DNA of 24,000 nucleotides from Candidatus Subterrananammoxibius californiae (GTDB taxonomy: Bacteria > Planctomycetota > Brocadiia > Brocadiales > Subterrananammoxibiaceae), in contig JAURAC010000003.1 in the NCBI GenBank assembly GCA_030586555.1, positions 84,073-108,072 on the forward strand, read 5' to 3'. The notes beneath the pieces are model-generated. The model searched no databases and was not told the DNA's origin. It worked only from the letters and a program-made list of their open reading frames with translations. Made by a program: the position numbers and the translations under genes. How positions within the stretch are numbered: the stretch's first letter is position 1; every line of letters begins with the position of its first letter. Positions 19,923 to 23,773 of this stretch are shown here, piece by piece.

Positions 19923-21494
19923 GTGCGCTTGGCAACTTTAGATGACCTGTCTGCGTGTGGACACGCACAAGCAGATAAGAATTTATCACCAACGAAACGA
20001 CTCTCAATTACAATTCCATCCTTTCATGTTAAAAATGTATATCTGATAGGCATTGGCGGTACAGGCATGAGTGGGTTAGCCAGGTTATTACTGACAAAAG
20101 GATATAAGGTTTCTGGTTCTGACACACAGCCCTCTCCGACTACCTTTGCACTTGAAAAACTCGGCGCAAGAATCACCAACAAACAAGATGGCAATGGGGT
20201 AAACCCCGAAACGGAACTGGTTATCATTTCTGCTGCAATTACCGAGGATAACCCAGACCTGATGGCTGCCCGCAGTTTCAGCCTGAAAGTGATTAAATAC
20301 TCACAATTCCTGGGTTCTTTAATGAAAGAAAAAAAGGGCATTGCTATAAGCGGCACCCACGGGAAAACAACCACTACCAGTATGGTTTCTACAGTTCTTA
20401 AATATGCTGGTATGGACCCATCATTTGTAATTGGCGGTGTTGTTCCAGAGATTGGGGGGAGTTCGCATTATGGCAAAGGGAATTTTTTTGTCGCAGAGGC
20501 ATGTGAGTACGATAAGTCTTTTCTTTATCTTTCTCCTCATATCGGAGTAATTACTAATATAGAAGAGGATCATCTTGATTATTACAAAAACATCGAAGGC
20601 GTAGTAAATGCCTTTGCCGAGTTTGCCACCTCAATTCCAGAGGATGGTTTGTTAGTAGTAAACAATCAGGACGATAATATAAAGAAGGCTATAAAGGGGG
20701 CTCACTGTAATATAGAAACCTACTCAATGGATGACCCTTTTGCAAACTGGACTGCCACCCGACTGAGGTGGGATAACACATTCGAGGTTTTTCACAATGG
20801 CAGCCCGTTTGGTGAATTCGGACTCAGGATTCCCGGTGTTCATAATGTCATGAATGCACTTGCAACCATCGCTACGTGCACGTTTGCCGGCGTGGAAAGG
20901 CAATCTATCATGGAAGGGTTGGCAACCTTTAATGGAGCACAACGAAGATTCCAGATTATTGACAGCGTAAACGGAATTACCATTGTAGATGACTATGGCC
21001 ATCATCCAACGGAAATTCGCGCCACCCTCAGGGCTGCAAGAGAGAGGTTTCCAGAAGGTAGGATATGGTGCGTATTCCAGCCACATCAATATAGCAGGAC
21101 AAAGTTACTGCTAAAAGATTTTGCCCGCTCCTTTGGTGATGCCGATAAGGTCGTTCTGACGGACATCTTCTCTGCACGGGATAGCGAGGAAGATAAAGCA
21201 GCAATAAACTCGTGCATTCTAACAAACGAAGCCCGCTTGCAGGGCGCTGATGCCCTGTATATTCCTCATATTGATGATGTGCCAGACCTCTTGTGCAGCG
21301 GTCTTATGCCTGATGATGTTGTTATTACCATGGGTGCTGGCGATGTCTGGAAGGTGTCTCGTAGCTTAATATCAAAATTACACGAGCATAAATCAAAAGC
21401 GTCAGGGGACAGGGGTCAAGAGTCAAGAGTTTGGACTCATAACCCAAGACTCATGACACAGGACTTAAATGGAATATTACAACCTGCCTTATAA
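19923..21494 (+). CDS. murC: UDP-N-acetylmuramate--L-alanine ligase, with N- and C-terminal extensions
   Basis: GIGGTGMSGLA and GTHGKTTTTS motifs. The GTG start lies 9 nt after AAGGAGG. The last ~30 aa are read through a heptamer array and overlap murB by 26 nt. Confidence 0.9.
   Translation: MRLATLDDLSACGHAQADKNLSPTKRLSITIPSFHVKNVYLIGIGGTGMSGLARLLLTKGYKVSGSDTQPSPTTFALEKLGARITNKQDGNGVNPETELVIISAAITEDNPDLMAARSFSLKVIKYSQFLGSLMKEKKGIAISGTHGKTTTTSMVSTVLKYAGMDPSFVIGGVVPEIGGSSHYGKGNFFVAEACEYDKSFLYLSPHIGVITNIEEDHLDYYKNIEGVVNAFAEFATSIPEDGLLVVNNQDDNIKKAIKGAHCNIETYSMDDPFANWTATRLRWDNTFEVFHNGSPFGEFGLRIPGVHNVMNALATIATCTFAGVERQSIMEGLATFNGAQRRFQIIDSVNGITIVDDYGHHPTEIRATLRAARERFPEGRIWCVFQPHQYSRTKLLLKDFARSFGDADKVVLTDIFSARDSEEDKAAINSCILTNEARLQGADALYIPHIDDVPDLLCSGLMPDDVVITMGAGDVWKVSRSLISKLHEHKSKASGDRGQESRVWTHNPRLMTQDLNGILQPAL
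21401..21463. repeat. Heptanucleotide array inside the murC 3' end, upstream of murB
   Basis: GTCAGGG GACAGGG GTCAAGA GTCAAGA GTTTGGA CTCATAA CCCAAGA CTCATGA CACAGGA, with an imperfect dyad. Confidence 0.65.
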
Positions 21495-22350
21495 TGAATT
21501 AATTAAACGTAATGAACCACTGAGTCGCTATACTACGTTTGGGATAGGTGGGACGGCTGAAATATTTGCAGAGCCTCGAAACAGCGCGGAGCTTAAGGAG
21601 TTTATAGAGTTCGGCAGGGATAGCAGGCTGCCAATAAACGTTATAGGTAAAGGAAGCAATGTCCTTGTAAATGATAGCGGCGTTAGAGGTATAGTCATCT
21701 ATCTTGCAAGAAACGGTTTTAAACGTGTAAAAAGAGAAAATTCTTCAATAATTGCAGGGGCTGGGGTTAGCCTTCCATTGCTTGTCAACAAGAGTGTGGG
21801 GTGGGGATTGGGTGGTTTAGAGGTGTTAACGGGGATTCCCGGAACAGTCGGAGGCGCTGTTGCCTCAAACGCTGGAGGCAAGTACGGCACAATAAGTGAA
21901 TGCATAATGTCTGTAACAACCATAGACATTGATGGTAGAACTCACCAGTACAACAGAGAGGATATTGACTTCGGATATAGAAAAAATTGCTTTCTTAACC
22001 AAATAATCATCGAGGCAATGTTAAAACTAAAGGAGTGTAACAGAGTAGCGTTGCTGAAGCGCTCCAGGGAAATTCTTCAAGAGAAGAATCTGCGTCAACC
22101 GCTTTCGGCAAAGAGCGCAGGGTGTGTTTTTAAAAATCCCGAGGGCTATTGCGCCGGTGCATTGATTGAACAGGCTGGATTAAAGGGGCAAAGGGTTGGC
22201 GGGGCAATAGTATCAGAAAAACATGCAAATTTTATTATTAATACAGGCAATGCCACCGCAGCCAACGTGCTTGAACTTGTTGACGCGATAAAGGGCGATG
22301 TTTTGCGGAAATTCAACATCTTATTAGAATTAGAAATTCAGGTATGGTAA
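21469..22350 (+). CDS. murB: UDP-N-acetylenolpyruvoylglucosamine reductase
   Basis: The LSRYTTFGIGGTAE FAD-binding N-terminus, GGLEVLTGIPGTVGGAV, and SAGCVFKNP...GGAIVSEKHANFIIN. Confidence 0.9.
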   Translation: MEYYNLPYNELIKRNEPLSRYTTFGIGGTAEIFAEPRNSAELKEFIEFGRDSRLPINVIGKGSNVLVNDSGVRGIVIYLARNGFKRVKRENSSIIAGAGVSLPLLVNKSVGWGLGGLEVLTGIPGTVGGAVASNAGGKYGTISECIMSVTTIDIDGRTHQYNREDIDFGYRKNCFLNQIIIEAMLKLKECNRVALLKRSREILQEKNLRQPLSAKSAGCVFKNPEGYCAGALIEQAGLKGQRVGGAIVSEKHANFIINTGNATAANVLELVDAIKGDVLRKFNILLELEIQVW

Positions 22351-22531
22351 TCGTCGCTCGTGACCCGTCGCCCGTGACTCGAGCAACGAAGAAAGGAGGC
22401 TACCAATGTATAAGTCAACGAATGCGGCAGTTCTAATGGATGAAATATCCTCGGAAAGCGAGGTATCCATCCATTCAGGCGCTACCATAAGCGAGGCGCC
22501 CATAGGAGCAGAACACAATATTATCTTCACC
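22123..22531 (+). repeat. Tandem duplication, unit 1 (murB 3' end + spacer + ddl-like 5' fragment)
   Basis: It aligns codon for codon with 22532-22921 apart from the spacer. The murB-derived parts are offset by 409 nt and the ddl-derived parts by 390 nt. Confidence 0.85.
22351..22392. repeat. Heptanucleotide array between murB and the chimeric ORF
   Basis: TCGTCGC TCGTGAC CCGTCGC CCGTGAC TCGAGCA ACGAAGA. It is absent from the equivalent spacer of duplication unit 2 (22760-22795). Confidence 0.6.
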
Positions 22532-22759
22532 TGTATTTTTAAAAACCCACCTGGCTATTACGCCGGTGCATTGATTGAACAGGCTGGATTAAAGGGGCAA
22601 AGGGTTGGCGGGGCAATGGTATCAGAAGAATATGCAAATTTCATTATAGATACAGGGAATGCCACTGTAACCGATGTGCTTGAACTTGTTGACATGGTAA
22701 GATGCGCCGTTCTGCGGAAATTCAATATCTTATTAGAATTAGAAATTCAGGTATGGTAA
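22406..22759 (+). CDS. Chimeric ORF: Ddl N-terminal 42 codons fused in frame to the MurB C-terminal 75 codons. A duplication relic that may be a pseudogene or a novel small protein
   Basis: MYKSTNAAVLMDEISSESEVSIHSGATISEAPIGAEHNIIFT aligns with Ddl residues 1-42. CIFKNPPGYYAGALIEQAGLKGQRVGGAMVSEEYANFIIDTGNATVTDVLELVDMVRCAVLRKFNILLELEIQVW aligns with MurB residues 219-293. The frame is intact, and it has its own AAAGGAGG SD at the same spacing as ddl. Confidence 0.6.
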   Translation: MYKSTNAAVLMDEISSESEVSIHSGATISEAPIGAEHNIIFTCIFKNPPGYYAGALIEQAGLKGQRVGGAMVSEEYANFIIDTGNATVTDVLELVDMVRCAVLRKFNILLELEIQVW

Positions 22760-22921
22760 GAACCCTTCCACTCGGGGGCGGAAAGGAGTCTGCAAATGTA
22801 TAAGACAAGAAATATAGCGGTCCTAATGGGTGGGGTATCCTCGGAACGAGAGGTATCCCTTCGTTCCGGCACTGCTGTAAGCGAGGCGCTGAAACAAGCA
22901 GGACACAATGTTATCTGTATC
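22532..22921 (+). repeat. Tandem duplication, unit 2 (murB-like 3' fragment + spacer + genuine ddl 5' end)
   Basis: See unit 1. The murB-derived parts share a run of more than 50 identical nt (gccggtgcattgattgaacaggctggattaaaggggcaaagggttggcggggcaat). Confidence 0.85.
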
Positions 22922-23773
22922 GAGGTAAATGATGAAAAGGTTGAGGAGCTTGACAGACATGAGATAGATGTCGCTTTCATTGCGCTTCATGGCTATTTTG
23001 GAGAAGACGGGGGCATACAGAGCCTTCTTGAATCCAAAGGTATCCCTTACACGGGCTCAGGTGTCGAGGCAAGCAGAATTGCAATGGACAAGATAGAAAC
23101 CAAAAGAAGATTCCTCGCCAGAGGTCTATCTACCCCTGATTACGTGTCAATAACCCAATATTATAACATGTCAGAAGTGCAAAGATTTGTTGATATGCTG
23201 GGTTTTCCCGTAATCGTGAAACCCGCAAGAAACGGCTCCAGTATTGGTGTCTCAATGGTAAAAAATCTTGCAGAATTAAAGAAGGGAATAGAAAAAGCCC
23301 TGAAGTTCGGTTCAAAGGCGCTTATTGAAAAACACATCCACGGAAAGGAATTAACGGTAGGGATTCTTGGTAATAATCCTCTTCCTATCATCGAAATAAA
23401 ACCTGCTGTGGAATTTTTTGACTACACAGCAAAATACAATGACAGCAGAACGGAATACAATATGGAAGTATCTCTACCTTCCTCTGTCTATAACGAGGTA
23501 CAACAAGTAGCCCTTAAAGCACATGAAACCATCGGTTGCAAAGGTTTTTCCAGAGTAGATATGATTCTCGAAGAGCAAAATCATGGTCCTAATGGCCTTG
23601 GTCTTGCCAGTCACATTTATCTCTTAGAAATCAATACAATACCAGGATTCACGGAAAAGAGCCTGTTGCCAAAGGCTGCCAGGGCTGCAAATATTGGATT
23701 TGTGGGTTTGTGCGAGACGATAGTCGAGTTTGCACTCCAGGACGTTGAAGCAGGCATAGAAGAATTGGTGTAA
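22796..23773 (+). CDS. ddl: D-alanine--D-alanine ligase
   Basis: VLMGGVSSEREVSLRSG, ALHGYFGEDGGIQSLLE, and an ATP-grasp core ending in YLLEINTIPGFTEKS. Confidence 0.9.
   Translation: MYKTRNIAVLMGGVSSEREVSLRSGTAVSEALKQAGHNVICIEVNDEKVEELDRHEIDVAFIALHGYFGEDGGIQSLLESKGIPYTGSGVEASRIAMDKIETKRRFLARGLSTPDYVSITQYYNMSEVQRFVDMLGFPVIVKPARNGSSIGVSMVKNLAELKKGIEKALKFGSKALIEKHIHGKELTVGILGNNPLPIIEIKPAVEFFDYTAKYNDSRTEYNMEVSLPSSVYNEVQQVALKAHETIGCKGFSRVDMILEEQNHGPNGLGLASHIYLLEINTIPGFTEKSLLPKAARAANIGFVGLCETIVEFALQDVEAGIEELV

Follow-up and report, generated by a model that had tools for sequence, protein, structure and literature searches.

An open reading frame at the joint of an old murB-ddl tandem duplication in the dcw cluster of Candidatus Subterrananammoxibius californiae

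Between murB and ddl in the division and cell wall (dcw) cluster of the anammox-related planctomycete Candidatus Subterrananammoxibius californiae lies a short open reading frame (ORF) whose beginning resembles Ddl and whose remainder resembles MurB, and the question raised by this locus is whether such an ORF is a gene or a by-product of the event that created it. The locus was analyzed in a window of 24,000 nucleotides (GenBank assembly GCA_030586555.1, contig JAURAC010000003.1, positions 84,073 to 108,072), the whole stretch of DNA under study; the genome of the window is designated W, and the loci of relatives recovered for comparison bear L numbers. An earlier note, made from the letters of the window, had taken the murB 3' end, the spacer, and the ddl 5' end to be tandemly duplicated, by an event old enough for the copies to have diverged, with an intact chimeric ORF as the result; this reading was supported by the present analysis. 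The MurB-derived 75 residues of the ORF appear to be under purifying selection as strong as that on genuine MurB, and its Ddl-derived leader, shortened to 15 codons in the diverged relative L025, evolves neutrally. On these grounds, the locus probably presents a new small gene born within an essential operon.

The dcw cluster of the window runs in the order murC (19923-21494), murB (21469-22350), the 117-aa junction ORF, ddl, and the start of an ftsQ-like gene. The relevant features are as follows:

21469-22350, plus strand: murB, full length, 293 aa, parent of the chimera tail (Pfam FAD_binding_4 and MurB_C positions 4-98; 118 full-length homologues)
22123-22531, plus strand: repeat unit copy 1, 409 nt, with the murB tail (22123-22350), spacer 1 (22351-22405), and the Ddl-like head (22406-22531) (repeat search and alignment)
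22152-22208, plus strand: gene-conversion tract copy 1, 57 nt identical to 22561-22617 (0 paralogue differences, permutation p=0.007)
22352-22378, plus strand: heptamer (7/14-nt) array, in spacer 1 and not in spacer 2 (Tandem Repeats Finder; homologous array in the single spacer of L031)
22392-22399, plus strand: Shine-Dalgarno sequence AAAGGAGG of the junction ORF, the duplicated ddl ribosome-binding site, 6 nt upstream of the ATG (from the sequence; the ending ...AGAAAGGAGGCTNCCA-ATG is as in the single murB-ddl spacer of L031)
22406-22759, plus strand: junction (chimeric) ORF, 117 aa, residues 1-42 from Ddl and 43-117 from MurB (ORF list, alignment)
22531-22532, plus strand: novel join point, from Ddl codon 42 to the MurB Cys codon TGT (sequence, alignment; the same murB codon is joined in L025)
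22532-22921, plus strand: repeat unit copy 2, 390 nt, with the MurB-like tail (22532-22759), spacer 2 (22760-22795), and the genuine ddl head (22796-22921) (repeat search and alignment)
22561-22617, plus strand: gene-conversion tract copy 2 (same test as for copy 1)
22796-23773, plus strand: ddl, full length, 325 aa, parent of the chimera head (Pfam Dala_Dala_lig_N and Dala_Dala_lig_C)

The two units form a direct head-to-tail repeat with one novel junction and with both flanking parent genes intact, and ORF 22406-22759 is the join-point ORF of a tandem duplication, an already known kind of element. The repeat search matched 22123-22350 with 22532-22759 (228 nt, 87%) and 22391-22526 with 22781-22916 (136 nt, 76%); the between-copy tblastn E-values of 1e-36 to 1e-39 exclude chance resemblance. 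The MurB-derived halves differ at 29/228 nt and share an identical run of 57 nt (22152-22208 = 22561-22617), while the Ddl-derived halves differ at 32/126 nt. The earlier note had placed the unit boundaries at 22123-22531 and 22532-22921, which the repeat search and alignment recovered as tandem copies, and its counts by eye (about 28/228 with an identical run of more than 50 nt, and about 33/126) were close to the exact ones. Its further claims also held: the 117-aa ORF has its own Shine-Dalgarno sequence; the breakpoint falls on the Cys of the SAG-C-VFKNP loop; the heptamer array occurs in the first spacer only; the alignment confirmed the loss of the Ddl GG motif (LMGGVSSE became LMDEISSE in the chimera); and no stop or frameshift was found.

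The duplication is real and inherited. The source assembly is a 3.3-Mb metagenome-assembled genome (MAG) of 150 contigs with 5% contamination, a setting in which a repeat might be collapsed or expanded or two strains joined into a chimera. However, the copies are 13-25% diverged and have spacer indels, whereas artefactual duplicates would be near-identical, so that repeat mis-assembly is ruled out, and the chimera head differs by 22-25% from every ddl in the family and hence is not the ddl of another strain. Two further assemblies contain the exact 117-aa protein in the same murB-ORF-ddl order, namely L023 (GCA_052360945.1; 100% identical over 5.6 kb) and L024 (GCA_016198835.1; 4 independent single-nucleotide polymorphisms (SNPs) in 5.6 kb, 0 in the ORF), and a homologous structure is present in the diverged species L025. 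An assembly artefact, a possibility raised in the earlier note, was therefore rejected and deserves practically no credence. Over these 5.6 kb, W and GCA_016198835.1 differ only at positions 21400, 21414, 22385, and 23274; spacer 1 and ddl hold one of these SNPs each, and the other two lie in a heptamer array between murC and murB.

The Brocadiales survey covered 92 species representatives, among which W is the only one of its family and the only species with two adjacent MurB tails. Family-level relatives were recovered via MurB (70-83% identity). In the locus L025 (JGI 3300037247; nucleotide identity about 81%), murB and ddl are separated by an ORF of 90 aa, in which the first 15 ddl codons, free of indels, run into the TGT (Cys) codon of C-V-FKNP that is also the join point in W. 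The search for the duplication in related genomes proposed in the earlier note thus found it in L023, L024, and L025, and found it absent from L026, L031, L033, L034, L035, and the other 91 Brocadiales species. A search of 5.8 billion proteins gave P0001 and P0003 as the only short chimeras; a scan of metagenome contigs for more carriers returned distant single-copy MurBs only, and a scan of genome contigs found none. In the combined MurC+MurB+Ddl tree, W is sister to L031 (support 96/97), followed by L026 (88/91), with L025 outside, and a W+L025 clade was rejected by the approximately unbiased test (p-AU 0.002). Since W and L025 are not sisters, the distribution requires two gains, or one gain and several losses. 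A tail-only nucleotide tree gave no resolution.

Several candidate loci were set aside. The 103-aa MurB_C-only protein P0012 is a broken murB on an unrelated scaffold. The open frames of 89-91 aa in G087 and G044 belong to frameshifted or broken murB genes in low-quality MAGs; at these loci (L038, G087:C12, and L039, G044:C178) murB is split across frames, in G087 murC as well, probably by sequencing or assembly frameshifts. The contig of L032 stops at the murB stop, with the break within a palindrome resembling repetitive extragenic palindromic (REP) elements, and was not informative on the duplication. This GC-rich palindrome, GGGGCGAACGGCCGTTCGCCCC, is flanked by GTAG...CTAC directly after the murB stop (L032 4389-4415), and its REP-like character indicates that, in this family, REP elements are found in the murB-ddl spacer as well.

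The two MurB tails exchange sequence by gene conversion in both carriers. In four-taxon site patterns of the tails, the paralogues group by genome at 11 sites versus 1. Tail nt 29-85 of W show 0 differences between paralogues, versus 4-19 in every other family pair, and a GENECONV-style permutation over variable sites gave p=0.007 for each of W and L025. Beyond the converted tracts, the two W tails are as far apart as those of any two species (28/124 nt). Because of conversion, the raw divergence of the tails under-dates the duplication. The head is unconverted: W_ddl and L031_ddl share a derived state, with the chimera ancestral, at 5 sites, and the opposite pattern occurs at 1 site. The maximum likelihood (ML) head tree places the W chimera outside (W_ddl, L031) with support 71/86, and forcing W_ddl and the W chimera together costs 3.1 log-likelihood units (p-AU 0.077). 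These data favour, as the most likely history, that the W duplication would predate the W/L031 split and would then have been lost in L031. Synonymous divergence (dS) is about 0.43 for W-L031 and about 0.64 for W-L025, and the chimera-head branch measures 0.20-0.26 substitutions per site. The duplication is old, with a neutral head divergence comparable to a species split; the age proposed in the earlier note is thereby borne out, with the addition that the tails are under gene conversion.

The substitution pattern differs between the two parts of the ORF. In relative-rate tests with L031 as the outgroup, the W head has 28 chimera-unique versus 2 parent-unique changes, and the W tail 12 versus 14 (unconverted part 11 versus 14); the L025 tail has 11-14 versus 12-16. 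The distances to the consensus ancestor are 24 and 22 of 225 for the chimera tails versus 20-26 for genuine MurB, and 28/126 for the W chimera head versus 7-10 for near-clade Ddl. The branch-polarised counts, with the ratio of non-synonymous to synonymous rates (dN/dS, ω), were the following:

Chimera tails: 14 synonymous and 13 non-synonymous changes, ω 0.39 (W) and 0.19 (L025)
Parent tails: 12 synonymous and 16 non-synonymous changes, ω 0.49 (W) and 0.34 (L025)
Chimera heads: 7 synonymous and 26 non-synonymous changes, ω 1.3 (W) and 1.1 (L025)

The chimera tails deviate from the neutral expectation of 23% synonymous changes (p=0.0009), and tails differ from heads (Fisher p=0.017). In a custom-written ML branch codon model (GY94-F3x4), ω of the chimera tails was 0.36, not different from the background of 0.22 (p=0.27), and ω of the chimera heads was 0.88, with ω=1 not rejected (p=0.76) and a difference from real Ddl heads (p=0.0009). 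According to the earlier note, neutral substitution together with a lack of expression would mark a decaying pseudogene, and dN/dS of the MurB-like half was to be calculated; neutrality was found in the Ddl-derived head and not in the MurB-derived tail, where ω=1 was rejected (p=0.015). Conversion erases synonymous and non-synonymous differences equally and cannot produce the tail ratio.

Two observations concern the parent gene. The real MurB tails of the two carriers (22123-22350; L025 3734-3958) have ω 0.48 versus 0.21 in single-copy relatives (ML p=0.067), which may reflect a relaxed or altered constraint on the parent beside a second tail, or conversion from the chimera. In the genuine murB of W, 8 nucleotide changes lie within 15 nt (22285-22299), yielding D-AIKGD, where all relatives and the W chimera tail read D-M(V/I)R(C/S)A; at this site the copy is nearer to the ancestral state than the working gene.

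Judging by its predicted domains, the product cannot be a reductase or a ligase. In Pfam, the 117-aa product matches MurB_C (PF02873) at positions 25-98 of 99 only, versus 4-98 in genuine MurB. MurB_C was also the sole family matched by the 90-aa protein; neither protein had an FAD-binding (flavin adenine dinucleotide) domain FAD_binding_4 (PF01565), and the chimera had no Ddl family match (Dala_Dala_lig_N or the ATP-grasp C-terminal domain). In MurB, both the flavin and the catalytic Arg reside in the FAD-binding domain. Residues 43-116 of the chimera can be aligned to 238-311 of Staphylococcus aureus MurB 1hsk (E=1.6e-14) and to 225-298 of 4pyt (E=1.5e-17); in the 1hsk alignment, Cys43 occupies the position of the catalytic Ser238, Glu113 that of Glu308, and Tyr76 that of His271. 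The Cys opens all 11 Brocadiales MurB tails examined (9 of the family and 2 outgroups) in the form C-V/I/A-FKNP (W site 22120-22140). The His equivalent to His271 is invariant in 118/118 full-length MurBs and is replaced by Y in the W chimera (TAT) and by Q in L025 (CAA); the changes H34Y and N40D in W and H34Q in L025 are all at sites invariant in 118/118 MurBs. The lack of the FAD domain, the truncated MurB_C, and the replacement of the invariant His in both lineages are the reasons for which reductase activity is discounted. The breakpoint is not a domain boundary, as the tail starts about 22 residues inside Pfam MurB_C. In AlphaFold2 models, the predicted local distance difference test (pLDDT) values of the tail were 92-98, and the head (<50) was left unmodelled.

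The junction ORF begins with 42 Ddl-like codons, which read in frame into the final 75 MurB codons and their stop, and its frame is open throughout in W, L023, and L024, as is that of the L025 ORF; the stop or frameshift expected of a pseudogene is thus missing. There is no frameshift in the 354 nt of the ORF, whereas the spacers carry indels. In neutral simulations, the probability of no stop given the observed substitutions was 0.17 (W) and 0.28 (L025), and because of this the open frame alone is weak evidence of function. The Shine-Dalgarno sequence and the first three codons are kept in both carriers. No plus-strand terminator or promoter signal was found within the repeat unit, and Rho is encoded in the W genome. 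One example of a peptide unique to the head or the junction of the 117-aa product is ...GAEHNIIFTCIFK.

The following course of events would explain the locus best. A segment of 390-409 bp, comprising the murB end, the intergenic spacer, and the ddl start, was duplicated head to tail within the dcw operon. At the single new joint, the ribosome-binding site and start codon of ddl, with its first 42 codons, came to stand in frame before the 75 codons that end murB. The junction ORF would share the operon transcript and use the copied ddl start for its translation, giving a putative non-catalytic fragment of about 13 kDa from MurB domain 3, the substrate-binding lobe. Selection may act on the fold or binding surface of this fragment, which most likely would bind partners of domain 3, be it the UDP-sugar (uridine diphosphate sugar) that serves as substrate or product, or a partner surface of MurB itself or of the neighbouring Mur enzymes, and would modulate rather than catalyse the MurB step. 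The Ddl part would serve as a translation-initiation leader only.

We lean, without great confidence, towards reading the junction ORF as a translated, selected, and accessory mini-protein, a non-catalytic MurB domain-3 fragment. A number of points weigh against it. About 27 substitutions from two lineages underlie the selection signal (p=0.001-0.015), with trees that are violated by conversion, and the W case was chosen for its intact ORF, which is an ascertainment bias. Stricter private-change counts (5:5 and 2:7) were not significant; being biased against homoplasious synonymous sites, they were replaced by the branch-polarised counts and the ML model. Indirect selection could mimic protein-level constraint, since a copy that donates sequence to an essential gene by conversion has to remain compatible with that gene. 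None of the other 91 Brocadiales species has the junction ORF, and the family relatives listed above as non-carriers, the nearest being L031 and L026, have murB, a single spacer, and ddl, with no insert; the junction gene is dispensable, or accessory, because close relatives manage without it. As a truncated MurB_C that lacks its first 22 or so residues, the tail is uncertain to fold independently, and the AlphaFold2 confidence for a fragment modelled with a MurB alignment is no proof of stability. Finally, transcription and translation are inferred from the operon context only.

Much of this would also suit a relic, in which the ORF is a neutral by-product of the duplication, the tail is refreshed by murB conversion and indirect compatibility selection, and the open frame is partly luck. 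Conversion operates in both carriers, the head evolves in a fully neutral manner, both carriers have lost the catalytic-type invariant His (W also has N40D), the duplication is lost or absent in all close relatives, the probability of no stop (0.17-0.28) is not small, and the private-change counts fall short of significance. However, conversion cannot bias the ratio of synonymous to non-synonymous changes among the remaining differences, and the tails have ω 0.19-0.39 with ω=1 rejected. Over the 124 nt untouched by conversion, the chimera tail shows no more changes than its genuine counterpart (11-14 versus 10-14), 0 frameshifts have arisen in 354 nt despite the spacer indels, and the persistence of H34Y and N40D in the chimera indicates that compatibility selection via conversion is not strict. 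Bacterial genomes have a deletion bias, against which about 400 bp of useless recombinogenic DNA would have had to last over a dS of about 0.2 per lineage. A relic is, in our estimate, the less likely case, though one with a considerable chance of being right. The frame might instead be kept so that ribosomes cover the extra 400 nt and prevent Rho-dependent polarity on ddl-ftsQAZ, the amino acid sequence being irrelevant. The presence of Rho, the position of the ORF inside an operon with no internal terminator or promoter, a head that is stop-free despite 28 substitutions and shortened in frame in L025, and the retained Shine-Dalgarno sequence and first three codons all agree with such a translated spacer. 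It accounts for the open frame but not for a tail ω of 0.36 beside a head ω of 0.88 in one ORF, and polarity on an untranslated stretch of 354 nt is assumed for the host organism; we regard it as quite improbable.

The number of origins of the joint was considered on two carrier lineages only (W and L025). Two independent duplications agree with the non-sister position of the carriers, the clustering of the tails by genome, the different head lengths (42 versus 15 codons), and the absence of shared derived states in the heads; moreover, the W head has 3/3 states specific to the W+L031+L026 clade, the L025 head has the L025 state, and the age of the W head is below the W-L025 split. A single duplication followed by concerted evolution and losses agrees with the junction at the identical murB codon in both carriers, the conversion demonstrated in both, and one chimera-only shared state (tail nt 176). 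That the in-frame fusion at the Cys codon opening the MurB active-site loop arose twice independently in non-sister lineages and was each time kept by selection appears doubtful; if true, a stand-alone, catalytically dead MurB domain-3 fragment would have been born convergently, as a regulator or binding module in the synthesis of peptidoglycan precursors. A candidate alternative to convergent selection is that the T5A5 palindrome beside the breakpoint is a duplication hotspot.

This palindrome, TTTTTAAAAA, lies 3 nt downstream of the breakpoint codon in each copy (22130-22140 and 22539-22549) as well as in L025, and would be a candidate pause or template-switch site if the W and L025 duplications were independent. 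As for the spacers, spacer 1 (22351-22405) resembles the single spacer of L031 (2348-2436) and L026 in its heptamer array and ...GGAGGCTNCCA-ATG ending. Spacer 2 (22760-22795) starts with GAACC and ends with CTGCAA-ATG, like those of L033 (4392-4478), L025, and L035, which are outside the W+L031+L026 clade. No simple history accounts for both affinities.

The interest of the locus lies in a junction ORF that has persisted for about one species split in an essential and highly conserved operon. Its constrained MurB half and unconstrained Ddl half form an internal control, which would make the locus a clean natural case of a gene born at the joint of a duplication; the same breakpoint in two non-sister lineages raises the question whether a hotspot, selection, or concerted evolution is behind it. 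In peptidoglycan-containing Planctomycetes, such a non-catalytic MurB domain standing on its own, if it is indeed produced, could tune or report on the MurB step or the assembly of Mur enzymes.

Spontaneous tandem duplications at short homologies occur in enterobacteria; bacterial tandem duplications are mostly transient, and their junction ORFs are usually regarded as noise. The murB/ddl case shares with known join-point ORFs the two head-to-tail copies that recombine, the single novel junction, the intact parents, and the order of parts, the 5' end of the downstream gene preceding the 3' end of the upstream one. Unlike most bacterial tandem duplications, it is old (13-25% diverged) and lies inside an essential operon, and unlike known join-point ORFs, it has a split selection regime and a breakpoint that recurs in a non-sister lineage. 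A Drosophila survey has dealt with new chimeric genes arising by tandem duplication (PMC4503668). A literature search found no paper describing a Ddl/MurB fragment chimera. Compared with MurB type II domain 3 (S. aureus 1hsk; also 4pyt and 3tx1), the chimera retains the Ser238 position, here Cys, and Glu308, but lacks the FAD-binding domains 1-2 and the first 22 or so MurB_C residues and has the His271 equivalent replaced. Natural Mur fusions include MurE-MurF, MurC-Ddl, MurC-MurB, MurG-MurC, and MurD-FtsW, which are complete bifunctional proteins of >600 aa, and MurC-MurB and MurC-Ddl fusions are known in the Planctomycetes-Verrucomicrobia-Chlamydiae (PVC) superphylum (PMC10214165). Like these, the junction product is a hybrid polypeptide from neighbouring dcw genes in the PVC superphylum; unlike these, it does not comprise two complete enzymes but joins a fragment to a fragment within 117 aa, with neither parent activity possible and with the intact parents also present.

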